The notes under the pieces were generated by a model. That model did not search any database. It was not told where the DNA came from and saw nothing but the letters and a program-made list of their open reading frames with translations. This document shows positions 9,801-57,320 of a DNA stretch of 64,000 nt, piece after piece. The position numbers and the translations under genes were made by a program. The stretch comes from Marsupella aquatica (lineage: Eukaryota; Plantae; Marchantiophyta). How positions within the stretch are numbered: the stretch's first letter is position 1; the number at the start of each line of letters is the position of its first letter. Location: assembly GCA_973895155.1 (NCBI GenBank), contig OZ316894.1, forward strand, positions 19,134,805 to 19,198,804. The letters are read 5' to 3'.

Positions 9801-11437
9801 GTTGTTCCACGCAAATTTAAATGAGTCTGGCAATCATTGCTCGTACACCTACAAAGTTTCCTAAGGTCAAATTGAGTGTGACAGGAGATGACACTAACTA
9901 GTCGAGCTCTCAACCCTTTCTCCTAGAAGTTTTCAACGAATTCACAGTCGACGACCCCGATTGATGAGAAGCCAGTATCTTTAAGTCCGGAGAGCAATGT
10001 GCGGCATGAACGACCTTTCCTGAAATCACTTCGACAGGAAGGCAGAGATAGCCATTCTCAATAATATATGCACAACGCTTATCACGTACTGCTGAACTTT
10101 TAATACGAGATCACCAGCAGTATGTATCATCGAAGACTGTGCAATACTCACTATCGCCATTCCCCTATCATAACCATCACAAATTGCTCTCGCTTTCTCA
10201 TGACCGTCATCAATTGCTATCTGTTTGTCATTAACAAAACAAACTGCAATCTCTCTTTGGTGAAGATCAGAAAGAGCCCAAAGTTTTCCGGACTTGTTAT
10301 ACACTTTTAATTCTCATCCAGGCTGTAGGTTCTGTGGCCAGAAGGCTGCCACGGGCGCTGCATAATGACCAGAGTTTTGGATATGGAATGGCAATCTGAA
10401 ACATATCCTCATGAAAAACAATCGTCGGACTTAACACCATACAGAAAACAGAGTTTACTGTCCAGTTTGAATACCTGACGAAGTGGGATGATCCGCGAAA
10501 GCATTCCGATAAGGATGTCTGTATTCAGGCTCCTCTCATGAGCTTCGTCCAGGACAACAACGGAATATTTCCTCAGCAGGAAGTCTGCCTGCAACAATAT
10601 CATCCATTACATAAATCTTCTTACACTGACTTTTTCAGTAGTTGTACTTGTAGGCACTTATTTGAGTGCGCATGAATACGTACAAACACAGCTGCGAAAC
10701 CCTTAGAAGCATTGCAATAGCCAGAAGATCTAACACAGGAGGCACCATACCTGTAGTTCTCTCAAAAGTATTCCGTCCGTCATGAATTTGATGCAGCTTT
10801 TCTCCCCAATTTTACGATCATGGCGGACTTGGAATCCTACTTCTTGACCTAAACTCACACTCAGCTCATGGGCGACCCTCCGTGCAGTTGCTAGAACGGC
10901 AACCCTCCTGGGTTGGGTCACACCTATGATTCCAGATCGCTCTGGACAATGAGGAGAACCATACCCTGCTTCATATAGAAACTGCAAAACGGCAGATTCA
11001 CTGGGTGAGAATGCTTCCGAGCTAAAGTTCATTACGAAGGGTGTGCGTCCCTCCGGATTTTCTCTCAGTAAGTTGTTATTCATACAAGGGCATTGGCACC
11101 CAACCTGTGGAACCTGGGTGGTCTTGCCACACCCAGTTTCTCCGCACACGATGACAATCGGATTCTCCTGAATTGCCTCCATAATTTCCTGTTCCATCAT
11201 CACAATTGGGAGACTTTCTCGACTCTTTTCCACGTCATCCGGTCTCCGAACATGCACCACATACTTCGGCTTTCTGACTGCAGGCGGCTGTTTGGAAACG
11301 CTCAAAGCCTCTCCCTGTTCCTTAAATTCGCTCTCTAGCTGGGCAACTTTCCCCTTTGCTTTCTTCTTCTTCCTTTGCTTGCGACGTCTCCTCCTTTCCA
11401 TGCCGTCAACACCCACAGAGCTCAGAGCGTTTTCCAT
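6869..11437 (-). CDS. DEAH13: DEAH-box ATP-dependent RNA helicase, DEAH13/DHX37 (Dhr1)-like, 40S ribosome biogenesis
   Basis: Exons inferred from GT-AG junctions: 11437-11105, 10981-10751, 10588-10475, 9798-8560, 8407-6869. Motifs: GETGCGKTT (I), TQPRRVA (Ia), MTDGILLRE, DEAHERS (II), MSAT (III), FLTGQREV, ATNVAETSITI (V), QRAGRAGRTGPGHCYRLYS (VI), followed by HA2/OB-fold-like C-terminus. The acidic insert in RecA2 is typical of Dhr1/DHX37. The start codon is uncertain and upstream exons may exist. Confidence 0.93.
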
Positions 11438-11939
11438 CACAGAAACGTACCCAACCAGCCACTCTCTGCGGCGTACCTCGAAATTAAGGTCACACTCTCC
11501 AACCTCTATTTGCCTGACTCGAATACTTCAGCCATCCAGCACCTTCGTGATACAATCTCATTTCTAAAGGCATTGAGAAACTCCGTAGACTCTTCCGAGA
11601 TGGAAGGCACGAATCCCACACAAGCTCACTCCATCGAAATTCATCGAGGAAAGGCAGGAATCTAGTTGATCCAAAACCTACAGCAACAGCAGGTGGGAAA
11701 TGATAGGTTGGACAATAAGATGCTCGACAAACTGAATTGCAATGAAATTTTGATTGATGGATCCACACATGAAAAGCTCGGGGGAGTCGAGAGGATAATA
11801 ATGCATTACTGTAGTAGTCACCTCAAGTCTTCGGAGTGTGCTTTGAATTATTAGATTAGGGTATAGAGCTGAGCTCAACTCTTTGGTGGGCCTTGTTCAT
11901 CTACCTCCTGTTATTCTGTAGCGTTTCTCTGTCGTCCCC

Positions 11940-14340
11940 TGCGCCATCAGAGCTCCGTCCATCCAGGATGAAGCGGTGGACTGGGGGTTTAGGGTTTAGC
12001 CAGGGTTCCGTCCATCCACCGTCTGTTTACTGTGAAACCGAGTGTGGCCTGTAAAATAACAGAGGGTGTGTACTCGCCACTGTAAAATAACCGAGGGTGT
12101 CCATTTGCTACTGTAAAACCGAGTGCTGTACTCTATATCAAGAGAGGGTGTCGTTTGCTACTGTAGAACCTACTGTTGTACTGTAAAATAACCCAGGGTG
12201 ACCGTTTGCAACTGTAAAACAGAGTGCTGCTCTGGAAAATAACAGAGGGTGTCCGCTTGCTACTGTAAAATGGCTGTGTACTGTGAAATAACTGAGGGTG
12301 TCCGTTTGCAACTGGAGGGTGTCCGCTTGCTACTGTACTGTAAAATCACTGAGGGAGTCTGTTTGCTACTGTAAAACCAAGTGCTGTACTGTAAAATAAC
12401 AGAGGGTGTCTGCTTGCTACTATAAAACGGCTGCTGTACTGTCAAATAACTGAGGGTGTCGGTTTGCTACTGTAAAACCAAGTGCTGTACTGCAATTAAC
12501 AGAGGGTGTCTTTGCACTGTAAAACCGAGTGCTGTACTGTAAAATAACAGAGGGTGTCGGTTGGCTACTGTAAAACCTAGTGCCGCACTGTCAAATAACA
12601 GAGGGTGTCTGTTTGCAACTGCGAAAATGAATGGTATACTGTAAACTATTAGAGTGTCTGCTTGCTATTTAAAACCATTTGCTGTACTGTGTAAAATAAC
12701 AGGGGGTTTCAACCGAGCCTGTTGTCAGTCTGTGACAGAGCTGCCAGGAGTGTTTATGGAGGGCTTTGCTTGCCAAAGTGAAAAATGTCCTGCCATTGTT
12801 CCCCTGCATTGCAAACCTGGCAACGGGCTTTGCTCGCCATAGCCAAAAATGTCCTCACATTATTCCCCTGCGTTGCAAACATGGCAGCCCGGCCCTGCCT
12901 TTCTCCCACTCTGCCCTCACACTCGATTGCCCCCTGCTCCAGACAGGGCTCCATCCATCTGGGATGAAGCCGTGGTTAGGGTTTGGTGCTGTCCGTCCAA
13001 TACCAGTTTGCTACTCTAGAGTGTGTCAACTGAAGTTGTTAGAGCACTAGGGTGTGTCAAAGCACAGCCATAACTCTCAGTTATGGCTCAAGACATAAGA
13101 CGCTTTTACAACCCGGACAAAATCACTATGGGTTACAGAAATACATATCCATAAGGGGGACATGTCCCAAAAAATAAAGCCTTAACACTTTGGTTACGGG
13201 AGAACTTTGACACACCTACTCCCACTGTTTTGCCAAACAGGGTGTCTGGGAGCATTTGTGGCAGGCTTGGCTCCACATTGCAAACAGGGCGCCCGACCCC
13301 ACCTTTTCCCAACTCCACCATGGCACTCTGTTTCCCCCTGCGCCACACTCTGTTTCCCCCTGCGCCAGCCCAAGCTCCGACCATCTGAGCTGAAGCGGTG
13401 GTTGGGGGTTTAGGGTTTAGCTAGGGTTTCATCCAGCCAGTGCCTATTTGGTTGCTATAAAACTGACAATTATACTATAGAATAACAAAGGATGCCAACT
13501 AAATCTGAACCATCTGTCAGTCTGGCAAACAGAGTAGTCTGGAGCATTTATGGTGGGCTTGGCTCACTAAGCCAAAATTGGCCTCCCCTGTTCCTTGCGT
13601 TGCAAACATGGCAAACCTGGCCCTGCCTTTTTCCCACTCTGCCCTAGCACTTGGTTGTCCCCTACACCAGCCATAGCTCTATCTGAACCAGTGGTTGGGG
13701 GTCATGGTTTAGCCAGAGTTCCGTCTACCTAGTGTCAGTTTGCTGCTGTAAAACTGAGTGCTACTATAATGTAACAAAGGGTGCCAACTGAACCTGTTAG
13801 AGCACTCCCCCTGGTTTGCCAACAGAGCTACTGAGAGAGTTGATGGCAGGCTTGAGTTGCCATGGCCAGAAATGGTCTCCCATTGTTCCCCTGCATTGCA
13901 AACACAGCAGCCTGGCCCTGCCATTTGCTCACCAGTCCCTGGCACTCTATGATGCCCTTCTCCAGCCAGAGCTCTTTCCATGAGGGCTAAAGTGGTGGTT
14001 GGGTTTATCCATCCAACGTCCAGTTGCTACTGTAAAACTGAACCTTTTGAAGCACTCCCACCAGCCTGCCAACACAGGGTGGTTGGGAGTGTCATGCCAG
14101 GCTTGGCTTGTCATAGCCAAAAATGGCCTCCCACCATGTCCCTGCATTGCAAGCATGGTGGCCCATTTTCCTAGTCTGCGTTGGCACTCTGTCATCCCCT
14201 ATGCCAGCCAGAGCTCCGTCCAACCGGGGCAATTCGGAGGTTGGGGATTTAGGTTTAGCCAGGGTTTGGTTTATCCTGCACCCATTTGCTGCTGTAAAAC
14301 TGAGTGCTGTACTACAGTGGTGTCATCTCGGTTTGCCCAG
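11940..14340. repeat. Higher-order satellite: ~250-300 bp units with an internally amplified ~50 bp subrepeat and telomere-like motifs
   Basis: The unit start GAGCTC(C/T).TC...G(C/T)GGT.G..GGGTTTAG(GGTTTAG) recurs at ~11950, 12945, 13372, 13675, 13968 and 14210. TTCCCCTGCATTGCAAAC is repeated in the units. From 12025 to 12720 the subunit TTGCTACTGTAAAAC.GAGTGCTGTACTGTAAAATAACAGAGGGTGTC is tandemly repeated more than 10 times. Confidence 0.9.
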
Positions 14341-14591: not shown

Positions 14592-14943
14592 GAGCATCTC
14601 CAACCCAACTGGGTTTTGTTACTATACCTAACTGGGATTCATTGGAAGACTATCTGGATTTCAGGAAATGGGGTTTTTGGTTATTGGATCTATAGGTTTT
14701 TGGTTTTGGTTATATAGGAGAGATTATAGTTGACTCCTTACTAGGTTTGTTGCTGGGATTTCAAGATGGCAATCTAAGGATGCCATGTTGATACCTACTA
14801 TTTAGGGGAATTACCCTGTCAGGGTTGGGGCTGCTTTTCAGTTGGCCCCTAAAACCAAGTACAACAAACTAAATATAGGACTTTGTCAGACTGGGTATTT
14901 AATATACCCAAATAAGCAAAACCCGGTTGGATTGGAGGTGCTC
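14592..14943. mobile_element. Tourist-like (PIF/Harbinger) MITE
   Basis: ~27-bp TIRs: GAGCATCTCCAACCCAACTGGGTTTTG at the left, and the right end reads GAGCACCTCCAATCCAACCGGGTTTTG on the reverse strand. TTA target-site duplication at 14589-14591 and 14944-14946. Confidence 0.88.
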
Positions 14944-15471
14944 TTATAGCAGAGATGTCCAGTAAACAGTACTTTACCATACACCTAAAATTAGAAAAGG
15001 AAACTTATGAAGTGCATTAAATCACAGCTGCCCCTAAGTTCTTATTATAATGTGCACAGAATGGGCTTGAGCTCCACAAAAGGTGGTGAGTGCTTCACTT
15101 TTTATGTCACAAAATGAGGAGTAGTGAGGGAGTGAATGGGGCTTTTATGGGGGTAAGTGTGGTTTGAGTAATGTTCAGTAGGGTTTAAATGTTTCGATCG
15201 TTCACATTGTTTGCATTTTCATCTACTTGTTCACAGATGATGGTAGAACGCTTTCTGCTGGGTTTTACAATTCTCCTCGATTCTCCAGTGTCCATGCAAT
15301 TCGTTTTGTCGAGTGCCATTTTGTTCGATGGTCTTTCATCTGCTTCTGTAGGTTTTTGGATCGGCAACTCGATTCCTACGATTCGTCCTCGATGAATTTT
15401 CTCAGATGCACCATTGAGCTGAGCCTCTGGAGGATTCCTGCCCTCCATCTCGGAAGAAGTCTACAGAGTTC

Positions 15472-15807: not shown

Positions 15808-15868
15808 GAGAGATTCGGAGAAATCCTTTCCATCGCTAATTTTGCCTGCAAAGTGGTATGGTTGAGCA

Positions 15869-17533
15869 ATGGCGATGCAGCATAGGTGTAAACTTGCCTG
15901 CCACCTGATCAGCACCCACTTCGGCGAATTGGTGGAGAAGGTTTGCAGTTGCTTGATCTACAAAGGTCCGCTAGCTCTTCCGGAAATCGCTCGATATACA
16001 GAACTGAATCCCGGTCAGCTCCGCAACTGCCTCCTTGTTCTGGTTCAACATAATTGTGTTCAGGGCTACAAAGTCGAGCACGAAGCCATCGGACAGGCTG
16101 GTCCGAAGGTATCCACCTCTTACATTGCTATTGTCAACAACATTCTTCACAGGGTGCGATTTCCCAAGTTTCTTGTAACTGTTCGTGATGAAATTGGAGA
16201 CGAGACTGAGTCTTTATTAGAAGGTCTGCTGGAGCATGGGAGGCTGACTTTGGAGCAAGTAATACAAAGGGCTGCTGCACGACAGGGCAAAGCGGAAGCA
16301 GAGGTGGAAACACTCCAGAAGCAAACCTTTGCAGCTCTTGTGCGCTCACACTATATCGAACGCTGTCCTTCATCGGAGCCCAATGTGGCTCCCAAGTCTA
16401 TTGAGCCACCCAAAAAGGTACCACGGGGAACATCAAAGGCTAAAAGCATCAAGGAGGCAGTAAAGCTTCTTGAAAGTGAAGAACGGAGGATTCTCAATGC
16501 TGCGTCTGTACTCGACACAGAGCGGTTTCGGATGCCATCTTCTCTGGAAGAAGTGGGAGAAACAAACTCTGACGAACCCATGACAGAGCCTGTGGGTGCA
16601 GCGGGGCAGAAAAGAAAGCGAGATGCATTGGACATGGATGCAAAGACTATGGCCCTTATTGATGAGAAAGAGGTGTTGTGGCGTGCTAATTACGACGAGC
16701 TCATTCGCAAACTGAGACACCAGGCTTGTGTAGCTCAAGTCAAAGCAAGGATAGATTCTACAGCAGGTGTAGTGCTGGAGGCAATGCTGGAAAGTACGAG
16801 TCAGGAAACTAGGTACAGGCAGCAAACTTCTGTTTCCCTTTCCATGCCCGTAATCATGGAGGCAGTGACAAGAACTCCAGAGGGTCGCACTATGACAATG
16901 GAACGCATTCGTGGGGCTCTGCATCAGATGTCCTCGGAATCCACAGGTTTCTTGAGCAAGTTTGGTGATGGTGGGAGCAGCTATGTCATCAATATCCACA
17001 AAATCGTTGAACTTGCACGACGAAATGAGGTTGAGGGTATAGTGCTACAACGATTTGGACGCGAATGTTGTCGTATTTACAGACTTCTTATGATGAAGGG
17101 TCAAATGGAACAAAAGCAGATTGCAGGAATGGCCATGGTGCAGCTTAAAAGTGCCAGGGAGCTACTGTACAGGTTATTGAAGGAGCAGTATGTTATAGTT
17201 CAGGAGGTTGCAAAGACAGCGGAGCATTCTGCACAAAAATCATTTTACTTGTGGAATATAAACTGGCAAACTGTACAAGACCTAGTGCTAGACGACATGT
17301 ATCATGCTGCAGCAAACTTGGGGCAACGCCTTGCACAGGAGCTGGAACAAGAACAAGAGGTATTGGAACTTCTAAAACAAATCCAAGCTGCCAAGGCAGC
17401 TGGGGCAGAGAGTCATGTTACTCTGACTCAACGCCAACATGAGCAAGTGAAGCGGATCCGAGGTGTAGCTTCTGTGCTTGAATCTTCTTTGCTGCACCTT
17501 GACGATGCCATCCTGTTGTTTCATGATTTCTAG
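15869..17533 (+). CDS. RPC3: DNA-directed RNA polymerase III subunit RPC3 (RPC82/POLR3C family), intronless
   Basis: 554-aa uninterrupted ORF with N-terminal HFGELVEKVCSCL..KG.L...LRNCLLVLVQHNCV winged helix, RVRFPKF, LLEHGRLT, WRANYD, RFGRECCRIYRLL and KSFYLWNIN, all characteristic of RPC3. Confidence 0.92.
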   Translation: MAMQHRCKLACHLISTHFGELVEKVCSCLIYKGPLALPEIARYTELNPGQLRNCLLVLVQHNCVQGYKVEHEAIGQAGPKVSTSYIAIVNNILHRVRFPKFLVTVRDEIGDETESLLEGLLEHGRLTLEQVIQRAAARQGKAEAEVETLQKQTFAALVRSHYIERCPSSEPNVAPKSIEPPKKVPRGTSKAKSIKEAVKLLESEERRILNAASVLDTERFRMPSSLEEVGETNSDEPMTEPVGAAGQKRKRDALDMDAKTMALIDEKEVLWRANYDELIRKLRHQACVAQVKARIDSTAGVVLEAMLESTSQETRYRQQTSVSLSMPVIMEAVTRTPEGRTMTMERIRGALHQMSSESTGFLSKFGDGGSSYVINIHKIVELARRNEVEGIVLQRFGRECCRIYRLLMMKGQMEQKQIAGMAMVQLKSARELLYRLLKEQYVIVQEVAKTAEHSAQKSFYLWNINWQTVQDLVLDDMYHAAANLGQRLAQELEQEQEVLELLKQIQAAKAAGAESHVTLTQRQHEQVKRIRGVASVLESSLLHLDDAILLFHDF

Positions 17534-25194: not shown

Positions 25195-25375
25195 ACAGAA
25201 ATATATATCAATGTGCCCAAGGGCAAAAAACGCCGAACCGGGAGACATGATCCCAATGGCAAGGCAACCCAATGAAGGGAAGGAACGAGGGGAAAGGGCC
25301 CCAAGAAAAACAAGTCAAGGGGACCCCAAGCAAAACCCAACAAAGAAGCCAGAGCCGAAAACAGGATTGTCATGC
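25195..25375. repeat. Dispersed repeat, probably a retroposon 3' tail on the minus strand; homolog at ~37525-37690
   Basis: TATATCAATGTGCCCAAGGGCAAAAAACGCCGAACCGGGAGACATGATCCCAATGGCAAGGCAACCCAATGAAGG aligns by eye with TATATCACACCGCCACAAAGCAAAAGGCGCTTAACCCTGAGATACAATCCCAAAGGCAGGAGACCCAATAAAGG at 37528. Confidence 0.55.
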
Positions 25376-26146
25376 CGAGGGACAGTGCCGCTTGTGCACA
25401 TCGGCATGTCCCTCGCATGCCCGCTAGGTATGGTTAGGGCTAGTGTACTACTTGAGTTAGTGTCATGTTCTTGTAGCGTGTCTGGGCTGTTCTTGAAGCA
25501 AAAGGGGTTTGTTAGTGTGACGCCTGGACCCGGTCCTACTTAGGGCATGTTTTTCTTTGTCGTTCTTCAGTTCTTCTTGAATCGTTGTGAGACAGTTTTT
25601 CAGAGGCTGCTCGTTGGTTCCGTACACGGAATTCACACAGTGATTCGTTAGATGCTCCCGGCCGATCTTGGCATCTCGCCGGTTTTCGATTCGATTTCAG
25701 TACGTTTGTTTCTATCACGCCTTTTATTCAAGAAGAACTCTGTCGCCGGGTTAGCGGTGAAGGGAAGAAGATCGAAGACGCTGTGCTTCTCAATTGCTCG
25801 AGACAGTTGACGCTTTTCCGCTGATGCCGGTGCAATTTCTATGGAAAAACGTTGAGCGATGGGGTGGAAGTTATGGCTTTTGTGTATACACTTAAGTATA
25901 TACACTTAAGTCAAACAGGCCCCCCCCCTCACTTTTTTCCTTCCACTTTGCTTTCAGGGTTTTCCATTTCCCGGCCACGGCTGCCATCCTGCATCGGCTG
26001 CCGCGCGACAACTTCCGCATTGCCTCGGCCACCGTGCGACTGCTTCTCGACTACATAGGGCCTCGCGCCCATTTTCTTTTCGCCCTTTGCTGCCATTTTT
26101 GCCTTTGCCTCGCCCATTTTCCTTCCTTCTTTTCCTTACCGTTATC

Positions 26147-26563
26147 AGCAATTAAAGCACTTAGATGAAGGGGGAGCGAGTGTGCAAGGAGAGGGCACGA
26201 GGCCCTATGCTGCAATTTAAGGAGGGGAGGGGAGCGAGTGTGCCAGGATAGGGCACGAGCCCCTATGCTGCATTAAAGGGGGAGGGGGAGTACCTACGAC
26301 TCCCTTCTCGGGAGTCCTCCTGCAGGGCACGAAGCCCAGATAGCAGCATTAAAGAGGGGGGAGACAGAGCCGAGGCAGCGCAAGGAGTGGGCACAAGGCC
26401 CTATGAAGAATTAAAGGGGAGAGGGGGAGTTCACGTCGACTCCCCTCGGGAGTCCTGCCAGGCACAAGGCACCCAGCACATTTAAGAGGGGAGGGGGAGC
26501 TCGTAGCCCCACCTCTTCAGGAGCTCATAAGGAGGGGGGTGCGAAGCCCTATGCACAGGGCTC
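26147..26563 (+). repeat. Six-unit repeat/variable-spacer array in the retroelement 5' leader
   Basis: Each 55-80 bp unit is TTAA(A)-G-rich(GGGGAGGGGGA)-variable middle-GG(G)CAC(G/A)A(A/G)GCCC-TATGC-like. The hairpin motif occurs at ~26193, 26251, 26325, 26389, 26461 and 26537. Confidence 0.85.
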
Positions 26564-29500
26564 ATTTCTTTTTCTTCGCCTCACTCTTCCCGTTTTCTTT
26601 TCGCCTTTTTCGGCTTGTCTCGCTTTTTCGCCGCGCGACGATCGACCTGTTTCCATCTCTCGGGTCCACATCGGGCTGATGTGTATACACTTCAGATTCT
26701 GTGTCCCACTTGGCCCGGTTTTCTTTTCCCGCTGACGCGCACCTCTTTGGTTTCCCTTTTCCTGCCAGTTTTTGGGTCCACATAGGGGCCCGATGTATAC
26801 ACTTAAGGGGGGGGGCCACTTCTAGTTTCTTTTCCCGGATTTCTTTATTGCCGCCAACATTAAGCCTTTCCCGAGTTTTTAAGGGGTTTTCCTTTGCCGA
26901 CGATTTTTCTTTGTGACGGTTTTTCTGTGTGTTTACACATTTGACACATTGCTACCTTGTACCGTTTGTCTCCTTTGTGGGTTTTATTTCCTAGCCTTGG
27001 GGCTGCCATTCCTTTTTCTTGTCAATTTCTTTCCCATTGGCACCCCGGGTGAGCATGCAGCATGTCAGCCGACGAGCCGAGAGGTAGCAGCTCATCGCCA
27101 CCGACACCCCGGTACCACTTACAGAGTGATCCATGACCGTTGGTGCCAATTTCATTGGAGTCTCGGCAATTTCGACGACGTCAGCAGACAGCAGCAGCAC
27201 CCACACCACGCAACCCTTCTGCTACATTTGGCGGTCGCTTCACCTCTACCCCGAAGCTTGCTATCACTTCTTTGCCTTTTTCTCCTTCTGCATCAGTGAT
27301 TGTTCCAGCTTCACCGACATACAGCATGGATGCCAGTCACTCATCTGGCCGCATTGAGCGCTTCAGCAGGCGGCCAGGCACTGTCTCTTTGCGTGAGTTC
27401 AAATCCACTTTCTACATTGTCGTTTACGAATTGGAGTTGAAGTATGGCAGCAATTTCACAAATGCTTTTGCATTTAAGCAGCTAGCCAGGTATGTGCACC
27501 ACGAGGCTTTGGATGTGTATGAGTAGCATTCTCAACGGCTGCTTGCTGTCACACAATTGCCTAACCCTGCCTATGCCACTGCAATTGCGGCTGCCTCACA
27601 ACTGGCATTACAGAATGCCATTGCAGCCCATGTTGCTGCTCCTGCCACTTCCCCTCCTACTCTAGTTCCCACCACTGCACCAGTTACTCCCACTGTCTTG
27701 GCACAGGCTACATCAGGCATTTCTCCCACCATTGATTCCCCTGCCTTTGCTGATCCAGTGGCTGAGTTTTTCCAGGTTCTTGAATTGGAATTCCCAATCA
27801 AGAGTGCTGACAAAATCATGCAGTTGGCCACCTTTGTGAGGCAGCGCGATGAAACATTGAAGATGCTATATCGCCGGCTTCTCAAGCTGAAGGAAGACAC
27901 CCAGAGCATCACTGACCTGGAAGCTGCTCATCGCTATCTTCGCGCATTGGAGGGCACACCAGCTCTCCATTCGCAAGTGTTGCAGCAAGTATTCTCAGAG
28001 TTTGGAGACAGCTACACCCTGCTCAATGTCTATGATACTGCTGAGAAACTTGAGTTGGCCCATGCACATTATGAGGCCAGTATTGCGCGTCCACCGCGAT
28101 CCAGGTACCAGGCTGCTGCCCCTACACTGCCCACCCCTTCTTGTGTGCCACAGTATGGTTCCAAGACCAAGCCAGCACATGCTGCTTTCATGCTGCCATC
28201 TTGCAACTACTGTGGTAACCCCAATCACAAGGCTAATGAATGTGATATTGTTGCTGAGGACCTGTCTTGTGATTTTTGCGGGAAAGTGGGCCACTTGGAG
28301 GCAGTTTGTTTTGCCAAATTCCCCGAGAGGAAGCAGCTACGACAGCAGGCCACTCATCCTACTCCTGCTTCCACTCCCCCACCAGCTAGGAAGGCTCCTA
28401 CTACATCAATTGCTCCTCCTTCCAGTGGCAAAGCATCCAATGCTAACAAATTGCCCAAGCAGCCACAGAAGCAACCAGCTCAGAAGGAGGCTCACAACGC
28501 ACAGGCAACTCAACTCCAGTCTCTGACTCATGAGGTTGAGTCCTTACATGCCCAACTTGCCAACATCAAAGGCAAGTCCACTACCTCTGCTGGTCCTTCT
28601 CAACCGGCTGGTCACGTGCAACCCATCCCTGGCCCAGGCACCACTGACAGTTCAGCACCTCTACCCCGCTCTTTCTATGGCTTGCCATTTGATGCTCATA
28701 TGGGTGAGTGTGTGCTGTCCTCTGCTACACAGCCTGGCCTTGTCGCAGAATTTTCAGATTCATTCTGCCCTTCCTATTTTGCTTACCAGCAGGCCAGTGC
28801 TGCCTCCCGTATTGCTCCCACACGCCGCATTGTACAGGCTGATGGTCTTGCTGCTGGTCCTATGACTAGAGCCGGGGGAGCTCGGGCTGTCATGCCCCAA
28901 TCTTTTCAGCCACTCACACTTGCTGAAGAGCGCACCTTGTTGGCGAGGGGGGAGGGAGCTGCAGCTACATCCATTCCACCACCAAGTGCTGTTGACATTT
29001 CACAGGGAGCTGTTTTTCCTAAGCTGCTTGAGCATTTCACCTCCGGTATGGCACAAAGGATTCTTACCACTCCACTTTTCAGTTGCCATGATTTACAGCT
29101 GGATGCTAGAGCTGTCATCAGAGCGCTAGAGGGCTCACTGCATTCTTCATCAGCCCCTATGACACCGGTTTTGGAGGTCCAATCTCATGTAAATACTGGA
29201 CCTTCTTCTTCTCCATTGCATGCTTCCACTGGTTTGGCTATCCCAGTACCGATTTCCAGTGGTAGAGATGACAGTATTGCTGCAGATTGTGTGACCAGAG
29301 CTACACTTGATTCTGGTCATGCTGCTCCATCTTTCCTGGCTATGCTGTTGAGTGAGAAGACTGTGGACACTAACTCCCTTCACAAGGTACCTCATCATTT
29401 GCCAAAGGTGGTGCCTAGTGACAGGACTTTAGTTTCCACCACCATTGCCATTGTTGACAACAGGAATTCAGCAGTCAAGTTGGAGGGTCACACTCCTCAG

Positions 29501-30178
29501 GAGGTCATGCTAGACACAGGCGCTCAACCAGTAATCTTGGGCATTCAGTTTGCCAAGGAGATGGGACTACTGACTGATCATTTACAGCAATCCAGGTGGC
29601 ACATTCGGACTACTAGTGGCACTGTGGAGGATGTGTTGGGTGAGAGTTCTACTTTACTCACTCTCACTTTTAATGGAGGTACAGATCAAGAATTGCATTT
29701 CCCAGTCCGATGTTTGGTTACCAATGCCACTACGTATGATGTGCTCATTGGCCAGGAGGCTTTGTTCCCACCAAGTTTTACCATTGACAACTGGCATGAG
29801 CATGCATACTACAGAGTTGATTGGCATACGGATGACTCACACTTGGGCTACATTCCACTTGATTTACATGGTGCCCATACCCCTATGGCTCACCACTGTG
29901 TGTTGAAAGCAGTGCACACAGCTACCTATGTCAACCACCCATTGCAGGATTGGATTGAGGAGGATGATGATGAGGTGGCTGCTGCACATGCTGCTACACG
30001 TATAGCAGCACTTTCCAGCAACGTGGATCATCAACCAGAGGTGGTACAACGGCTCCAAGCAGCCCATGGACCTTTAGTGGCTGCATTGCGCAAATTTGAG
30101 GACCTTGGGCAGCACAATGGACAACCAATAGCCCCAATCTTGAGCGCACCAGTTACATGGACTCCTCCTTCAGATGGC

Positions 30179-31120
30179 CTTACATTGCTTGAGCTTTTTG
30201 GTGGCATTTCTACAGGCCTGGAAGCTCTCCTACAGTCTGGCATGGTGGTGAAGCAGTACATCTATGTGGATATTGATCCAGGTGCAAGGCAAGTGTCTGA
30301 ATCTCGTCTGCTGGAATTTTCAGAGCGATTTCCCCAGCAGTTTCCACATAGTGTATGGAAGTCTGCATTTTCTTTCTTCCCTCCAGATATCCAGCTTGTC
30401 CAGCACCGGCACTTAACCCTTCTTGGCTCCCTTGATTTGATCATAGCTGGTTGGGAATGCCAAGGGTTTTCAGCTGCTGGTCACGGTGCTGGACTGCATG
30501 ATTCTCGTTCTGGCCTTTTCACAGCATTGGTTCAGATTCTCACCTGGGCTCAATCCCTTTATCCTGCTGTTGGTTATATCATTGAGAATACTCCATCTCA
30601 GTTTGACCAGCGTCCACAGGTCAAAGAGGATTTCAGTGTGGTCCAGCACTACTTGGGACCACCCCTTCTCATTGATGCAGTGCACTGTGGTTCTTATGCA
30701 CATCGTCTTCGTAACTTTTGGACTAACCTTGCACCACCTTCCTTGTTGGAGTTGGCTCTTCACCACACATCCAGGGACACTAACCTTACAGTGGACCAGA
30801 TTTTGGATCCTGACAGTTCTTGCCAACCAGTTACACGGCAAGAGCCAGCACCTTGGTATCCAGCCAATACCATTGGACAACCCCGTGCTGCTTGGCCTAC
30901 ATTTGTGTCCTTTCCAGGTGCACATGCTTTTCAGGGTGATGGTCCTGGTCTGGTTTATCGACATTCTACCAGTACATGGGATGAACCTAGTCCTGAGGAG
31001 AGAGAACGGGCTATGGGCTTCCAACCCGGTACTACAGGTCACACCAAAATCACCAGGCTGGCCAGGAATGCTTTACTTGGCAGGGTAATGGATCTCAATG
31101 CTCTCACTTGGCTTCTGGTC
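30179..31120 (+). other. DNMT3-like C5 cytosine DNA methyltransferase domain embedded between protease and RT
   Basis: Motif I LELFGGISTG (DNMT3A LSLFDGIATG); II YIYVDID; IV DLIIAGWECQGFS (Cys codon 30458); GLHDSRSGLF; VI YIIENT; VIII IDA...AHRLRNFWTNL (DNMT3A IDA...AHRARYFWGNL); IX EERERAMGF; X TRLARNALLGR (DNMT3A SRLARQRLLGR). Motifs are in canonical, non-permuted order. Confidence 0.93.
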
Positions 31121-34100
31121 ACTTGCATCCTTTTTCAGATGTACATTCCTCCAGTATTAGGAGCTCCAGCCTTACCACTCCACAGTGCTGCTGCATGGCA
31201 TCCAGACCAGGTGCACTTACCTCTGTCCAACACTCACCACTTCAGTCCAAGTGTTGGGGGGGAGGAGGTCCCTTGTAATGCGGCTGACATTATTTCTGAG
31301 TTTCATGGTGTGGACCACTTCAGATCAGCAGGTACAACAGGCCTTGGAGAGGCCTCATCACCTTATCAGCAGCATGCTAGCAGCTTGGACAGTGGAGAGG
31401 CTGGCACTTCTGGCTCTTCAAGCACAAGTACATCAGGTCCTGTTCCTAGTGTTGCCAACTACACATTTATCATGGGCAACCACCTAAGTAAAAGACAGAA
31501 GGACCAGCTGTTGAATTTGCTCCTCAAGCATGAGAACGTGTTTGCTTTCTCTATGAAGGACTTGGGTAAGTGCAAGACTATGCAGTTCTCCATTGAGTTG
31601 GCTGATGAAACACCTATCTTCAGGCGGAGACACCGTTTGAGTAAGCATGAGTGGCAGCTGGTGGATGAGAGGTGCCAAGAGCTTTATGAAGCTGGTCTTA
31701 TTCAGCCATCTACATCAGATTTTGCGGCAGCTACAGTGATGCCAGCAAAGAAGGATTCCAGTGGATTGTGGACAGAGAAGCGCATGTGTGGGGACTACAG
31801 GCCATTGAACCTGGTCACAGCCCAGGACAGGTACCCCATGCCGCGGCCAGAGGAGCTATTTGACAGCATTGGAGACTCAGACATCTTCACTCTTGTGGAT
31901 CTAAGGCAAGGCTTCAACCAGATTTTGCTGCTTGCAAAGGACCGCAAGAAAATAGCTTTCCATGGTAGTAACCAACTATGGGAGTGGTTGGTGATGCCAT
32001 TTGGCTTGAAGAATGCGCCCATATTCTTTCAAAGAGTCATGGACCAGGTTCTTCAAGGTGCTGAGTTTCTGAAATGCTACATTGATGATGTGTTGGTCCA
32101 CAGCAAAGGATTTGACCAGCATCTACTTGACCTTGAGGAGCTATTCATAAGGCTTAAGAAGGTGAACCTAAAGATACACCCCAAGAAGTGTGAATTTGCT
32201 GTCAGATCAGTAGTATATCTTGGGCATCGCATTCTTCCAAATGGAACCATGGCTCACTGGGCCAAGGTGGTATCCATCTTGGAAATGCCCACTCCTACCG
32301 ATGTTCACACTTTGAGGAGTTTTATTGGGTTGTGCAATTACTACCGGATCTACATCAAAGATTTCAGTACCATTGCACACCCATTGTATGCTTTGTTGAA
32401 AAAGAATGTGACTTGGACATGGAGTACAGATGTTGAGGCAGCATTTGCCACTTTGAAGGAGAAGCTATCAGAATACCCGGTGCTGAGAAGACCTGATTTC
32501 AACAAGGTCTTTGTGCTACACACAGATTGGAGTGCCCTTGGGATTGGTGCCATTCTAGGCCAGCATGGTGAGGAAGGTAAAGAGTACGTCATTGCCTATG
32601 CATCCAGGAGCAACAATCAGGCAGAGAGTCATTATTCTTCTTATGAGGGTGAATGCCTTGCTGTTGTGTGGGCTGTCATATATTACAGGCCCTACCTCTA
32701 TGGGACCAGGTTTGTTCTCTACACCGACCACCAGCCCTTGAAGTGGTTGATGACCAACGACAAGCTTACTGGCAAGCTTGCTCGTTGGGCACTCATACTC
32801 CAAGAGTATGATTTTGAGGTAATTCATAGGCTTGGTGTGACACATCAAAATGCTGACACTATGTCCCGCAGCCCTTTGATTGCCTCTGATGATCCCTCAG
32901 ATGCACGGCAGGATTTTGACCAGGTTTCCATCCTGCCTACATTTCATGCATCTACCTATCTTGCTTTGCTGCCATGCTACATTGTTGACCAACCTGTGGT
33001 GGACATATGGGAGGACAGCGACACTCTGAGATTTCTGCAGGATGGGGAGTAACCCACCCATGTTACTGCTGCCCAGAGAGACCGAATTCAACAAAGGTCC
33101 AAGCGCTACTTGTGGAAGGGAGATCATCTTGTGCGCTGCTTGCCAGACAGGGAAGTGGTGGTTCCACCCATTCATGAGAGGGTTGGCCTTATCCGTAAGG
33201 TACATTCTGAGCTTGGTCATTTTGGTGTTAAGAGGACTTATAGCCTCTTGGTCCCCCATTATCATTGGAGAGGCATGCATGGCCAGGTTCGAGATGTTAT
33301 TGCCCGGTGTGAGCAGTGTGATAGGGTAAGGACTTCTTTCGCATCTCGGCAACCCACACTTCATCCACTCCCTATTCAGGGCATGTTTTATCGTTGGTCA
33401 TGTGATTTGGCTGGAGAATTACCCCTCACATCTCGGGGTAATCTCTACATCATGATCATGATAGAGCATTTCTCCAAGTGGATAGAACTTGTGGCATTGC
33501 CGGATAAGACCTCCCGTAGCACCAGCCAGACATTCTTGCAACAAGTTCTCAGCCGCTTTGGAGCTTGTGCAGAATGTCTCACTGACCAGGGCTCAGAGTT
33601 TAGAGGAGAGTTCCAGGAGCTGCTTGATCAGGCTCTCATTGATCATCGCCGGACATCACAAGATCACCCACAGGCAGATGGCTTGGCAGAGCGCATGGTT
33701 CAGACATGCAAGAAGGGCCTTCGGAAGATCTGCCTCACCAAAAACAAGGAGGATTGGGACCTGGCCTTACCCTACATTGCCATGGGGTATAGGATGTCCA
33801 GACATGCATCACTGTCTAACTTTTCTCCCTACTTCTTGTTGTTTGGTCGTCACCCAGTTCCACCTTCTGCTATTGCTTCTCACATGCTTCAGGTGGTGGA
33901 CTTGGATTCAACTGTGACTTGGTCTGATGTGATCTCTGAGAGGGCTGCCCTATTCAGGAGGGTTATGCCCATGGCCATGGAGAATTTGGCCATTGCACAG
34001 CACAGGGACACACTGCGTTATGCACACACACGAGGGGGCACTTTTCAGCCCAAGGTCAGGAAGTTTGAAGTGGGAGATTTTGTGTACTTGCAGTGGCAAG

Positions 34101-34297
34101 CTAACGACACCCTGGACACCTCTACCAGTCGCACTATTCTCAAGGTCAAAGCTATTCGACCGTCTGGAGTGCTAGAGTTACAAGGGGCAGATGGGCGCAC
34201 AATTGCTGACAATGCCAAGAATTGCACCCCTTGTCATCTGCCTAACTTGGATCCCACCATTGTGACTTCTACTTGGATTCCACCTGTGGACTACCCT

Positions 34298-34432
34298 TGC
34301 AAAGTGTGTTTGCGAATTGATGATGCTGACCAGATGCTGCTGTGTGACAATTGCAATGGAGGGTACCATCTTTTCTGCCTTCGGCCTGAACTTACCCAGG
34401 TGCCAGAAGGGTTATGGTTTTGCCCTTCTTGT
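34298..34432 (+). other. PHD finger (C4HC3) at the integrase C-terminus
   Basis: CKVC-x11-CDNC-x4-H-x2-C-x14-CPSC with the typical LLCD, P.L..VP.G.W.C signature. Confidence 0.93.
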
Positions 34433-37400
34433 GCTCCACATGCTATCTGACTTTTCTTCAGCCCTCCTTTTGGCTGTGGTCTGGGGGGGATACAGAGGTT
34501 TACACCTCCACTACGTACATACCACCTCAGTTGCTTTTTCTTGGCACTTGTGAATGTGATTGGACTTTTTCTATGCATGTTGGTTGCTAGCAGCTTGCAC
34601 ATATGCATTGCCGGTGACTTGTATGTTTTTGATACACTATGGCTACGATACTATATGTCACGACAGGATGGCACCAAGGCAATAAGGCGAACCTACAAGC
34701 GAGAAACCAGACAAAAATGATCAGAGGCCAAAAGTGGTGGACACGTGTCAGGACGGGAGTGGGGCCGGCCGCATGTGCGGCCACCAAACCCGGAGGAGGC
34801 CCGGGGGCACGAGGTCACTCCCGGCGAGTGACCTCCCAACGGTGAGGCCCACCCGCCAGCATTAAAGCCCCCTGCCCTGCGGGAAGCCCTCCAAGAAAGG
34901 GGGGTGCACACGCGCGGTCCCGCACCCAAACCCCCCGCGCCTCCTCCCGTCACCCTCCGCCTCCGCCTTGCCTCCGCCTCGGATGGAGTTGAGTAGTCTT
35001 CAAAAAGGAACCTTGGTATAGAGTTGCTTGTTAAGATTTTACAAGAGTGCACACATCATGTCCTTGGTATTTTCAGCTTGTTGACTTTACTTGTAACCAC
35101 TCACATAAAAGTTTTAAAGAAAGACTACGCTCAACTATTACTAGTATTTTGCACAACATTCTCAGGAAGCAGTTGTCAAATATCGTACAACCCATGATTT
35201 GCACCAACCCCGAGTTGATTACAGTTGACTTGAAGCTCACAGTGGTCATTTAGAGACTTCAAGTCCTACAGATCTTAATTAATTGAACTCTGATAAACTG
35301 GAATTAAGCTTGAGATTAACTTTTCTCATATAATGTACTTTTTCCTCCGTGGTCCTTGTGTATTTTTCTTTTGATTTCCTTTGTTTTACCCTTTTATTGG
35401 GTTTATTGCCTTTGGGATTATGTCACCCGGGTATGGCTCCTTAGTTCTTCAATTGGCACAAGCACCAGGCTCAATATCAATTCATTGCCCATATGTTACA
35501 TCATAAGTAAACATGATTTTGTTGTGCCAAAGGACTTGTATCAGAGCAATCCACACATATTTCCCTTCTGTCAACCAGGAAGTTCAGGCCAGAAGGAAAG
35601 TATATTAAAGCCTGTTCAACAATTCAATGGCCTTTCAAAGTCTGAGACACGCAGGCTATTGTTTCAGCGCCTCCACCCCCCCTGAGATTGCCAGATCTAG
35701 CAAGTCCTGGAAATTCAGGGCTACAGTCCAAACTAAGGCAACAATTGAGAAACCTTGCCCCAAGGACTAGCTCAAGCATGCCCTAGGCAAAGGCTGGGAG
35801 GGGGGAGGAGAACACTCTGCCAGACTTCTTAAGGAAACATGACATGTAGTAAGCACTCGTTGTAATGCAGGTCCACAAGTCTTGATCTATAAGCACATGT
35901 GCAGCAAGAATAAAATACTGCTTGATATCTTTGAAAATGGAAATGACAGTCAGAAGTCAAATGAGAAGACCAAAGAGCGAACAGATCCTTGGGTCCCAGA
36001 AGGGTTGTCAACCCTTACTTTGGCTGAAAGTTTTAATGACCTAGAGTCTAGCACATGTTTTCACCACCAAGTCTTGGATGAGTTATTTTCACTAGCCTGA
36101 CCACCCATTCTTTGAACATAAATTGCGGGAAAAAGCACAACGTGAAAAAAAAAGATTCATTTGCTTGTTGGCAGTAAGGTCTACTCTAGACAGTAGGCCA
36201 TGACCTCACTCCTGTTTGGAAATTTCTGTTATAGATATCCCACATGTTGACTAGTTGTTAGAGCATCTTTGTGCTTTAGTATATAGTCTATTGTGTTAGG
36301 TGCAGGCTCCCAGAAAGACACTCCAAGAGGACACTTATCCATCTTATGCACTATGTTACAAGTGCGCAGGATATCATTTATTCTTTTCTCCATATATTTG
36401 TGTGCTGCATTACCCTATAAGTGCATTGTAAATTGCTTCTGCACTTCCTGATATGTGTACATGTAATTTCATGCACAATTTCATGCACTTATATAATTTT
36501 CTGCTGCAATTATCAATAAATGCATCTTATGTATATGCAGATAAATGCATGTGTAATCTTATAATCTAAATGAGGGTACATGCTTATTGAGGGTCTACTC
36601 ATGCAAAGAGTATTTTTTGTTGCCTTTGCAGCTTAGTTAGGAAATTAGGTGACAACGTGGTTGGCTTGCACTTACCTGCATAATACACTTATAGATGCTG
36701 CACTTATGCATGTTAGATTGTAGTTACACGCAACGAGGAACAATCATAGGACTTCCCTCGTCTACAACACAACACGTACAAACATAGGAAAACGAGCCCA
36801 GAGAAAACACCAGGAATCATCGCTCTACTTTTGGGATATTGTTCACAAAAATTAATGGCTCAATTACTGATTTGCTTGTCCCCTCGGTTGCATGCATACT
36901 CAAATCTTTCTCGATGATCAGCTGTACTACCATAGAGTACAAGCTGACTGACTTTAGTCAAGAAAAAGTAAATCAAGGTCCCAACCAGAGTCAACCCAGG
37001 CCCACACCAAGCAAAATCGGAGGCAATTAGCAAATGGAATGATTTGAGTATCTTGACTTGGTGATGTAACACAAAAGCTACTTTATTTTACTACTTGATG
37101 AAGGCTTTTAGGAGGGTACCTGCTACATAGGTGCCATAATACCATTAGGGGTGGTCGAAGGTGGTCCATAGGAACCAATATTGTTTTATACATATAGAAA
37201 GTAGCTAAGATGGTGACTCCTTCCTTGCCCTAGGAAGTAGTTCTCTATTACATGCTTGACAGATTTGAATGAACCTTCATATTTTCCGTGATCAAAGGAG
37301 GACTATTAGATCTAGCTAAAGTTTACGACTTCAGTAAGGATTTAGGCCGAAGAATTGAAAATATCTCAAAACTTTTCTTTGTACATTTTGGAAGAGGCTT

Positions 37401-39561
37401 TTCAAGGTAAAAAAATGCAGAGATCGTTATGGCCACAAACTAAGTGCATCCAACTTTCATTCCTAAATGTTTAGAATAGTATTCCATAAAAAAATTCAGG
37501 GAAATGTCTAGAGCAACCTGCATGACTGTATATCACACCGCCACAAAGCAAAAGGCGCTTAACCCTGAGATACAATCCCAAAGGCAGGAGACCCAATAAA
37601 GGAGAGGCAACAAGGGAAATCCCCAGGGAGATCAACAAGCCAAAAAGCCGGAGAGTACTCAGCAGAAGTCTCCTCACCACAAGAACCACAAATGAAAAAG
37701 TAGAGGCAGGAATACCCTAGTTTCTATTATGTCTTCATAAAACATCAGATTTTTTGGGGTAAGGATTGAACTTGAGTAGTACTATATGTTTTCTTTCTTT
37801 AAAGGGAAAACTGCCTTAGAGTAAGCTATACAAGTGGTTTGCAGGCAGGGAAAAGCCCTGGCTTATACTTTTGTAACTTCATATTATTCCTACAACTACC
37901 CACAAGCATCTAAAGTATGGGGCAAAACACATGTGACCCACCTTGGCATAGAACCCATATTATATGCCAAAGCAAATCTAGAACAAAATTGTGGGCGGGG
38001 TTTGAAGTTGAGACCTGCTGGTCAAAGGTCACCCCTGGCCACCTGAGCTGGCCACTAGGCACCACTCATGTGGTTAGTACTGCATATCTTTCTTTTATTG
38101 TCTTATGGAAAATTTAGTGTTAAGTGCTTTTATTGTTAGTAAGAGCATTTTATGTGAGGACACTTTCCAAGACAAACAATAGAGGTCGTTGCAAGCATTT
38201 TGTAGCCAGAATGTGATTGTGATAATTTAGTATTTGGGTTACACTAAATCAGCCCCATCAAATCACAAGGCCACCTCACATGATTTGATGGGGCAGGGGT
38301 CATCAACAAGACAATTCTGGATCCCAAACAAGTATTTGAGTGTTGAATTGAATGCTCTTCCAGACTCCTCATCCTCCTCCTATGACATTATAAGGTCTGA
38401 TATATATATATATGTCTTTGAGACCCAAAGGCTTCTGCTACTAAAAGTTCTACACGCCACTCTAATAGACCAAAAAGCGAGAAATCTTGATGTCTACTGA
38501 TAGAATTACTACATTTCCAGATCTAAAACCAAGGGAGAACCAAAAAAAGGAGAGAACTGAGTATTCAGGTTTTGGATGGGGTTGTAGATGTGCAGGGCGT
38601 CCCAAACCCGGGGGCTGGGTTCTTAACGCCAGGCGGCGTTAACCACAGGTTCTGGGAAATCCTGTAACTCATATATGTTTTGTCATTCTGGATCTGGTAT
38701 GTCATGGGCTTTTCTGACATTTTGATGTATCACTCAAGACAAATGAAAGGACAAAGGTTACTTTCTGGTTTTGGAAGCAGCATAGACAGAGACTAAATCA
38801 GTGGCAATGTTGTCGGACACCAGAAGGCTTGATTTCTGTGCCCTGGAAAATATGTGGAGCCTCCACTTGGCGACTATTGCTCATCCTCAAATGTCTACAG
38901 TAGACCATTATCTATCTTTTCAATTTTGAAAGACAATTTTTAATAAGAGGAAAGTGCTCGGGAGTTTCACCCGTGCAACTGCCTAGATTAAGTGCACACG
39001 AATAAAGTGACAACTGCTTTGTGGAGATTTTCGAAACCAACTAAACCTACTGTTACAGTAGCACTTTAACTACACCCTTCACCCCAACTAGTGTTAGTAT
39101 CGAATTAATGTGAGTGGGAAATTAGCGCTAATAAGATATGAGGGCAATAGGGGTTTTTACACTAGTTGAATCATGCTAGCGCCAAGAATTTCCATGCTGA
39201 ACCTGAAGCAGCCACCTTCTTTCCATGTAAATGAACCAATTGCGTAAAATTCATGATTACTGATATTGAGTTACCACTAATCCATCAATGTGACCAATAT
39301 TTCAGTGAAATTAGTGTAACACTAATTGCAGTGAACAGTTCTCTTTTCTAGACAAAAAGTTAACAGCTGGAAGGCATGATTGTGTATTTCACTTACTAGC
39401 CTGGATGCCTGAGCTTTGCTCTTAAACAGATAGTGATAACCAACAAGATTACCAACCATGTCCGTTTTCAATTTCAATTCATCCCAACTGGCCTGTGCCC
39501 TCAAAGTCACCATCTAGAGGCTTCTCAGAATGTTGGTTGATATTGCACTAGATAGATTGAC

Positions 39562-46854: not shown

Positions 46855-46887
46855 TTTGAAGGCGGGCCTGTCCTTCAGAAATCGAAG

Positions 46888-47643
46888 ATGAGTAGCAACG
46901 GAAGCAACATGAGCAAGGGAAGCAGGCAGACCAAGAGGCCTGCACCGTTGAAGATGGTGAAGGAGGAGGTGAGGCAATATCGACCTCCCGTGATCATCCA
47001 CACCTATTCGCCCAAGATTATCCACGTAGATCCAGCGGAGTTCTCGACGCTCGTTCAAAGTCTTACCGGTCTGACCGGACGAGGGCACAAGCGAAAACCT
47101 GAGGCCTCTCCAAGAGTCATCGAGCCGAAGGCGGACGAGTTTAACTGTCCATCGCCGACTCCCAGTACTGATTCTGGAATCCTTGCTGCCTTTGAAGGAA
47201 CGCATGGATTGCTATCACCTCGTGGACCTCTCGCAAGCTTCGAACCGTTTTATCATCAGTCAGGAGGGTTTGACGGCTCTTGCGCCTCACAGCAAGCTGC
47301 CGCTGACAAGGCCAGTACTATGTTCTCCAACGCCGTCCTCGCAGCTGCGAAAGCTACCGCGGTCACTGGAGGGGCTCAGTACTCGCCATTGTTCTCCTCC
47401 GGGTTTCCCAGTTCTCTGCCACACCTCTTCTCACCGCTGCCTTCGCCCAATTTATTGTCTCCCAGCTTCATGGCAGATTTGCCCGTCCTCTCCCCGGGCT
47501 CATACCAGTCTTTCGATTCCTTCGGTTCGCATCCGTTCGTGCCGTCTCCAGGCTATGGCAAATACACGAGCACGGGGATGGTGCCGTCCCCCGGAAGCAG
47601 CAATGCGTTCAAGGAGATGGCTTTGATGATATCTAGGCAATAG
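46888..47643 (+). CDS. VQ motif-containing protein (MKS1-like), intronless, 251 aa
   Basis: PVIIHTYSPKIIHVDPAEFSTLVQSLTG matches FxxxVQxLTG. The upstream RPAPL motif and multiple Ser-Pro (LLSP, FSP) MAPK-type sites fit this family. Confidence 0.92.
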   Translation: MSSNGSNMSKGSRQTKRPAPLKMVKEEVRQYRPPVIIHTYSPKIIHVDPAEFSTLVQSLTGLTGRGHKRKPEASPRVIEPKADEFNCPSPTPSTDSGILAAFEGTHGLLSPRGPLASFEPFYHQSGGFDGSCASQQAAADKASTMFSNAVLAAAKATAVTGGAQYSPLFSSGFPSSLPHLFSPLPSPNLLSPSFMADLPVLSPGSYQSFDSFGSHPFVPSPGYGKYTSTGMVPSPGSSNAFKEMALMISRQ

Positions 47644-57000: not shown

Positions 57001-57023
57001 GAATAGAACCTCCCGGGCCCGCA

Positions 57024-57320
57024 CTCGGGGGTCTCACTATATGGGGACCTCCCCATCACCTGCGACGTTTTTAGGCCTCGGACCCCCTAAAATGTAAGAA
57101 TTTTTTTTTAGTTTTTAACCCCTATAAAGTTGGAATATTCTTGGAATATTCTCAAAATTGGATTAAAAAGACCCTAATGTTCTTATCAGTCTCAAAATTG
57201 AATTTAAAAGACCCTATTGTTCTTCTACAAAAATTCTTAAGTCTTTCCTTAGAACCAATAAAATGACCCTATCCTTCGTCGCACGTGATATACCATTTTT
57301 GTGGAAGTGAAACCCCCGAG
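57024..57320. mobile_element. MITE, 297 bp, near-identical inverted copy of 55475-55770, 8-bp TSD
   Basis: TIRs CTCGGGGGTCTCACT / AGTGAAACCCCCGAG. Perfect TSD GGCCCGCA at 57016-57023 and 57321-57328. Confidence 0.95.

Follow-up and report, generated by a model that had tools for sequence, protein, structure and literature searches.

Why does a plant retrotransposon carry a DNA methyltransferase inside its polyprotein, and by which route does it copy and insert itself when its terminal repeats are not those expected of its class? The question is raised by an element in a 64,000-nt stretch of the liverwort Marsupella aquatica (assembly GCA_973895155.1, contig OZ316894.1, positions 19,134,805 to 19,198,804 of the forward strand), hereafter called the window, whose positions are used throughout. 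From sequence comparisons and structure prediction, we consider it probable that this is a dead liverwort copy of a Ty3/Gypsy element in which a DNMT3-like domain fused to Pol likely methylates the element's own new DNA, which primes itself in the manner of Tf1, and which integrates at a palindrome located inside its long terminal repeat (LTR). By the same analyses, the fusion of the methyltransferase is genuine, under selection and widely distributed.

The whole element spanned 25368-34665. Its gag-pol reading frame was a single frame on the + strand (27326-34450, 2374 codons) with two in-frame stops specific to this copy, at 27524-26 and 33050-52. The preliminary description had equated the element with this frame; the frame was real, but the element extended beyond it and the two stops had not been mentioned. 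The Pfam order in the frame was zf-CCHC, aspartyl protease, DNA_methylase, RVT_1, RT_RNaseH, Integrase_H2C2, rve and PHD. The Gag CCHC zinc knuckles (28181-28330, 53-80% conserved in relatives) gave a weak zf-CCHC match below the Pfam cut-off, and the aspartic protease (29474-29764, LDTGA at 29510) matched two models, both just below the cut-off. The Ty3-like reverse transcriptase (RT; YIDD at 32078) and RNase H were located at 31613-32812 with Ty3 as the best match (E 2e-66), in agreement with the Gypsy-type Pol described earlier, and were followed by an integrase with an HHCC zinc finger and a D,D,E core (33167-33880). The integrase's C-terminal end carried a PHD finger (34298-34432, Pfam PHD E 7e-12) and not a chromodomain, the chromatin reader present at this place in chromoviruses such as Tf1 and Tcn1. 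The nearest solved structures were the PHD fingers of WSTF, CHD4, ATXR5, KDM5 PHD1 and BAZ2, several of which we take to be readers of unmethylated H3K4. If it reads unmethylated H3K4, the PHD of the element would imitate what the ADD domain does in animal DNMT3.

The element agreed with Ty3/Gypsy in the order protease, RT, RNase H and integrase, the Ty3-type RT, the DDE integrase, the TG...CA termini and the 4-bp target-site duplication (TSD), as well as in a primer-binding site after the 5' repeat (here self-complementary) and a polypurine tract (PPT; a G run) before the 3' repeat. It departed from this class in lacking two complete direct LTRs: a search for LTR pairs in the window found none, and the relatives had split repeats. 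The missing 3' repeat and the abnormal LTRs had been overlooked in the preliminary description, although its Gypsy Pol stood. The search of the window for tRNA genes was also negative, and the frame gave no Pfam match to a tyrosine recombinase, the hallmark of DIRS/Ngaro, but matched rve and H2C2 instead. Programmed read-through of both stops was ruled out, as sense codons were found in the relatives in 36 of 44 alignments at the first stop and 43 of 43 at the second; the other eight relatives had a stop of their own at the first position. Because of the two stops and the absence of a 3' repeat, the window copy is predicted to be dead and immobile.

The methyltransferase domain (30179-31120, +) occupied an open part of the frame between protease and RT and matched PF00145 with 25.9 bits (cut-off 22; E 8e-6). 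Its motifs were arranged in the unpermuted order, with LELFGG at 30188, VDID at 30266, PDIQ at 30383, AGWECQ at 30446, IENT at 30581, AHRLRNFW at 30698, ERERAMGF at 30998 and LLGRVMD at 31073; the motif numbers used below are our presumed assignment. Among 39 sequence matches in PDB, the top 29 were DNMT3A/B/C and the lower 10 were M.HhaI. An AlphaFold2 model built from a 22-sequence alignment reached a pLDDT (predicted local distance difference test) of 84.9, and all 36 Foldseek matches listed for it were DNMT3A/B/C (best E 6e-17), with approximately 21% identity to DNMT3A in the structural alignment. The best matches in sequence and fold were accordingly DNMT3, while the DNMT tree described below held element and phage sequences only, without host DNMT3. 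The claim of a full, unpermuted, DNMT3-like C5 cytosine methyltransferase fused in frame into Pol was thus borne out, with its methylation activity being a prediction. Motif IV, which contains the catalytic Cys (30458), reads WEC instead of PC in this element. This was not a sign of decay, as EC was common in the family (52 of 94 homologues, compared with 32 for PC). The catalytic Cys, the Glu of motif VI and Arg193 of motif VIII were invariant in two protein alignments (22/22 and 25/25) that had been picked independently of the motif IV/IX patterns.

Homologue searches gave 94 long proteins and 261 representatives at E<=1e-30, including proteins of Marchantia polymorpha, Closterium, Monoraphidium, Chlamydomonas eustigma and Haematococcus. 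No named Klebsormidium protein was among the matches to the window domain. A metagenome scan confirmed 254 loci, of which the best 80 showed 58-75% identity; these 80 were chosen by patterns covering motifs IV and IX, so that copies without the domain could not appear. The domain order of the relatives was that of the window wherever the contig was long enough. Five genes flanking metagenome loci were looked up: four shared a 90% cluster with Sphagnum proteins, while the fifth was absent from the collection. The search of viral contigs matched only distant phage methylases (30 loci), and that of the ESM Atlas only generic DNA_methylase clusters. The ratio of nonsynonymous to synonymous substitution rates (dN/dS) in the domain was 0.09-0.10 when L001 was compared with L003 and L004; the pair L003-L004 gave 0.12, as did its RT, whereas the Gag-protease linker gave 0.67-0.90 in three L003 pairs. 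These values, near 0.1 in the two cleanest pairs, indicate purifying selection on the domain. Between the window and its relatives, dS was saturated and the divergence cannot be dated.

These results bear on a one-off capture, an outcome that the preliminary description had named as a refutation of its own reading. In this rival explanation, a decaying element picked up a fragment of a host DNMT3 that has no function. The two stops and the missing 3' repeat of the window copy would suit such an event, but the 94 homologous polyproteins, the 261 representatives and the 254 loci, together with the dN/dS near 0.1 and the in-frame, intronless fusion, refuted it and left it with practically no probability.

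The position of the domain was not the same throughout the family. Of 232 proteins, 40 had it before RT, 91 had it between RNase H and the integrase, a further 41 probably shared this second position, and 60 could not be assigned. The second architecture, RT-RH-DNMT-IN-PHD (RH, RNase H; IN, integrase), was observed in chlorophytes (Monoraphidium, Chlamydomonas eustigma and Haematococcus), in the proteins P0080, P0081 and P0094 and in unnamed ones, and in the DNMT tree it lay on one side of a branch with 98% support; judging from this, the domain has moved to another position in Pol. In Marchantia, a cluster of 18 members (P0007, including Mp_4g09160 and Mp_Vg00370) was distributed over the autosomes and the V chromosome; its proteins were annotated as hypothetical or CCHC proteins and ended after the methyltransferase. 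If the Gag-protease-DNMT frame were separate from RT in Marchantia, the enzyme would be made in Gag-level amounts. The finding places a multi-copy family in a model liverwort for which methylation mutants exist.

Two quick trees (75 and 46 rows, of which 24 and 28 were sampled from the second type; three unnamed Gypsy RTs formed the RT outgroup) grouped the window with Sphagnum-type copies (100%) and apart from Marchantia; the DNMT tree also included the streptophyte alga Closterium. Across 30134-32239, the window was 72% identical in DNMT and 86% in RT to the Sphagnum-flanked locus L003, and 37-43% identical in DNMT to Marchantia copies. The identity of the host gene RPC3 ran the opposite way (59% to Sphagnum, 71-78% to Marchantia). 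The closeness of the element to Sphagnum copies may reflect either horizontal transfer or ancient parallel lineages.

The ends of the element were defined with the help of relatives that all belong to one moss subfamily. Repeat assemblies were merged by eye, and four cut or ambiguous right ends were excluded. Self-comparison of the relatives revealed the layout A-internal-B-A-B, or in full A-internal-PPT-B-nn-A-B. Intact relatives started with TGTCATG and finished with CACGACA, and the window copy was bounded likewise, by TGTCATG at 25368 and CACGACA ending at 34665, each abutting an exact 4-bp TSD copy, GGAT (25364-25367 and 34666-34669). Among ten relatives with both ends, the TSD was exact in seven, had one mismatch in one and was absent in two. 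Repeat A (25368-25727), the part of the split LTR with the left end, the promoter, R and U5, and repeat B (34490-34665), the part with the start of U3 and the right end, were each present once in the window; the right edge of A was set by alignment to relatives with a duplicated A. The PPT (34483-34489) lay directly before B, with the same boundary between G run and ATACA in the relatives.

The right end was intact in 24 distinct insertions, half of them long (B-nn-A-B) and half short (B only, as in the window). The internal join of B and A was CA, two nucleotides and TG in 12 of 12 long forms, with a spacer that was always AC, GT, GC or AT; these variants would fit CHG decay of a GACAGCTGTC palindrome. 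The boundary of PPT and B was equally fixed (ATACATG in 12/12), while the join of A2 and B2 was exact in four, contained one G in one and differed in length in seven. Extra repeats were found at 12 of 24 right ends and at none of 28 left ends, so that no mirror form was seen (Fisher p 1e-5). An origin of the long form by insertion of a solo A-B piece in tandem was rejected, as the TSD flanked the entire unit and the spacer was always 2 nt. The short and long forms were 62.8% and 64.3% identical to the window (p 0.37), a comparison that does not separate the origins of the short forms. In L042, a solo A-B piece (14799-15265, -) with TG...CA ends and a 4-bp flank with one mismatch was observed, the analogue of a solo LTR, which shows that recombination between the repeats takes place once the element has inserted. 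LTR finders that require two whole LTRs would likely miss this family.

The 14 nt at 25569-25582, the predicted transcript start and self-primer, were perfectly complementary to 25726-25739, a stretch that includes the predicted primer-binding site (25728-25739), which pairs with the element's own predicted 5' end and lacks the tRNA-type TGG. The longest duplex in 2000 shuffles was 12 nt. No tRNA-type primer site was found after A1. Among 28 left ends, 12 had all 14 pairs, 13 had at best 12-13 pairs (two of them elsewhere in A) and three had 10, and in the relatives the self-primer was located approximately 32 nt downstream of TATAAAA. The window duplex differed from the relatives by two double changes that kept the pairing, both in the single window row. 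The overall stability of the 192-nt leader was unremarkable (z -1.5), leaving the duplex as the only informative feature. It is likely a self-priming duplex of the Tf1 type.

When B-nn-A is read as a single LTR, the steps up to linear cDNA would be those of standard LTR reverse transcription. The RNA would start in A, its first 11-12 bases would pair with the site after A to prime minus-strand DNA, and the plus strand would start at the PPT, giving (B-nn-A)-internal-(B-nn-A). This product would begin where B begins and finish where A finishes; these ends would be neither TG nor CA, and their joining would produce the imprecise junction of A2 and B2. Processed retroviral ends have a recessed 3' CA with a 2-nt overhang. 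Similar ends would arise here if the DDE integrase ignored the linear ends and instead acted on the GACA-nn-TGTC palindrome that lies upstream of the internal region, nicking each strand after CA; both resulting ends would have a recessed 3' CA and a 2-nt overhang. The old linear ends would be fused by end-joining, either before integration, as a 2-LTR circle, or after it. The outcome, A-internal-B-nn-A-B, would be the only form with R at both ends and hence replication-competent, while the short form, derived from a 1-LTR circle, from cutting at both sites or from recombination between the B repeats at a later time, would lack the 3' R and be a dead end. Our guesses for the preference for one site are its earlier completion or its methylation state. 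The PHD finger could steer the insertion or the enzyme to chromatin with unmethylated H3K4, and the methyltransferase, packaged with Pol, would put CG methylation on the cDNA, which is the weakest step of the proposal.

Copying in the manner of DIRS/Ngaro, with an RNA that starts in A1 and ends in B2, all of A-B-A-B templated, the ends rebuilt by the internal B-A join and short forms made by later recombination only, is quite improbable in our estimate. The layout is indeed that of DIRS split repeats (PMC5890265), extra repeats that are always 3' would be explained, and the solo piece of L042 shows that recombination after insertion occurs; yet the PPT abuts B1 and the self-complementary primer site abuts A1, LTR-type signals that would leave B2 uncopied, and the join of A2 and B2, at the predicted linear ends, was imprecise in 8 of 12 forms with the other edges fixed. 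The DDE integrase and the 4-bp TSDs, with no match to a tyrosine recombinase, also count against DIRS-type copying.

As for the enzyme, we lean slightly towards action in cis on new cDNA, since the domain is fused to Pol, its catalytic residues are kept, and the observed/expected (o/e) ratio of CpG was 0.24 in the coding region against 1.02 in repeat A (0.47-0.88 in four host gene stretches). Packaging of the enzyme, its release by the protease and methylation of the cDNA, as supposed in the preliminary description, were proposed earlier by de Mendoza et al., and the Dnmt3 domains of DIRS elements do methylate CG when placed in yeast (PMC5890265). The domain may instead be kept for another job, such as acting on host chromatin at or after insertion, binding DNA non-catalytically or guarding one attachment (att) site. 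This is unlikely, although the shifting position of the domain (40 and 91 of 232 proteins, as above), the many annotated proteins that end after it, those of Marchantia included, the CG-rich ends of the element and the inactivity of the Klebsormidium domain in yeast (PMC5890265) would agree with it. The conservation of the catalytic residues across both architectures counts against a purely non-catalytic role, and the fusion to Pol places the enzyme where cDNA is made.

Several observations weigh against the proposed self-methylation and integration route. Four Gypsy stretches without DNMT had CpG o/e values of 0.58, 0.49, 0.51 and 0.10, meaning that CpG loss is not specific to self-methylation, and the KnitGypsy-Dnmt3 domain gave no methylation in yeast, a result its authors deem inconclusive (PMC5890265). 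The conservation of motifs IV and IX in the 80 loci is circular because the loci were picked by those motifs, and the remaining pairs had a higher dN/dS in the domain (0.23-0.38), as expected of decayed copies. The TSD failed in two of the ten relatives and was mismatched in a third, and all end structures come from the one moss subfamily and the window. Finally, random opening of a symmetric 2-LTR circle predicts the mirror form, and its absence means that one site must be preferred.

The neighbourhood of the element agreed with the land-plant origin given in the preliminary description. The single-frame host gene RPC3 (15866-17533, +) was compared over 15872-17530 and showed 93% identity to that of Calypogeia fissa, against 78% for Marchantia paleacea and 59% for Sphagnum fallax, so that by this one gene the host is likely a leafy liverwort; protein matches also identified host genes for a DHX37-like helicase (6869-11527, -) and a VQ-motif protein (46855-47643, +). 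Between DHX37 and RPC3 (11980-14310) were degenerate repeat arrays of approximately 50 nt and 300 nt with plant telomere-like TTTAGGG motifs. Inverted 42-nt arms (81%) at 25238-25279 and 35390-35430 flank the element, and since they resemble 37548-37643, a small repeat element of greater age was likely its insertion site. The 1.6-kb leader of the element contained GC-rich repeats of 58-70 nt (26171-26500), and a TGTATACACTTAAG-like motif occurred in it four times (25875-26807). At 55473-57322, a 1.85-kb element with inverted arms of approximately 320 nt (221 nt at 98%, 98 nt at 92%; related arm at 61122-61210) is a young non-autonomous DNA transposon.

Retrotransposons carrying DNMT had been named as a precedent in the preliminary description, and the literature supplied it in KnitGypsy-Dnmt3 of Klebsormidium nitens, with Dnmt3 in a Gypsy Pol, DIRS-like repeats and Ka/Ks < 0.2, and in SymbioDIRS-Dnmt3 of Symbiodinium (de Mendoza et al. 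2018, PMC5890265). As the same architecture is published for Klebsormidium, the land-plant copies extend a known class. According to Morozov et al. 2019 (PMC6338049), transposons that code for a methylase do not occur in land plants such as tracheophytes, a statement which the range found here contradicts, at least for bryophytes. A 2026 preprint (10.64898/2026.05.21.726589) and Sarre et al. 2025 (PMC12344493) give the carriers only as 'streptophytes', and the methylation content of PMC10952607, PMC11982613 and PMC6453930 concerns host enzymes. Neither bryophyte copies nor a split-LTR or internal-att mechanism for Gypsy was found in the open-access literature, with Repbase, Dfam, subscription journals and bioRxiv supplements outside the search. 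The anatomy of the ends is the more surprising result, pointing to an integration route for which the literature covered held no description. There is a slight balance in favour of a wider proposal, a green-plant-wide Ty3/Gypsy lineage in which the att site of the integrase has moved to an LTR-internal palindrome and circle-junction substrates are routine, with a DNMT3 writer and a PHD reader; methylation may choose the site.

KnitGypsy-Dnmt3 and the present element share an unpermuted Dnmt3-type domain in a Gypsy Pol, the absence of introns and purifying selection. Its DIRS-like A-coding-B-A-B layout with Gypsy domains was that of the 12 long-form relatives, while the window copy has A and B once each, and the present family resides in liverwort and moss genomes instead of Klebsormidium. 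The word PHD is absent from the main text of PMC5890265, and the parts of that paper available give no account, for KnitGypsy-Dnmt3, of a TSD, an internal att palindrome, a PPT or self-priming; an internal att site would, if true, explain its unexplained 'DIRS ends on a Gypsy body'. Host DNMT3 enzymes (PpDNMT3b of bryophytes, PMC6453930; human DNMT3A) have the fold, motif order and de novo class in common with the element domain, which differs in its low identity to DNMT3A and in WEC for PC. DIRS, PAT and Ngaro elements, including SymbioDIRS-Dnmt3 with Dnmt3 in Pol (PMC5890265), resemble the family in the A-coding-B-A-B layout and a likely circular intermediate, but integrate by a tyrosine recombinase and not by a DDE integrase with TG...CA ends and 4-bp TSDs. 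In Tf1, Tj1 and Tcn1 (PMC4600332, PMC6317226), the primer site also pairs with the element's own 5' end and not with a tRNA, self-priming in Tcn1 being a prediction (PMC6317226). They share with the element the Gypsy domain order and a chromatin reader at the integrase C-terminus, but have two whole LTRs ending in TG...CA and no methyltransferase, in contrast to the PHD and the LTR split at an internal att site. The proposed cut is paralleled by the foamy virus and HIV integrases, which cut palindromic end-to-end junctions of 2-LTR circles (PMC1180852, PMC4372172). Those junctions are made from real linear ends, and integration from them counts as a minor pathway of retroviral integrases, whereas the element has its palindrome genetically encoded within the LTR and would use it as the principal route; a family that records junction integration as its normal route would make the question testable with short natural substrates.

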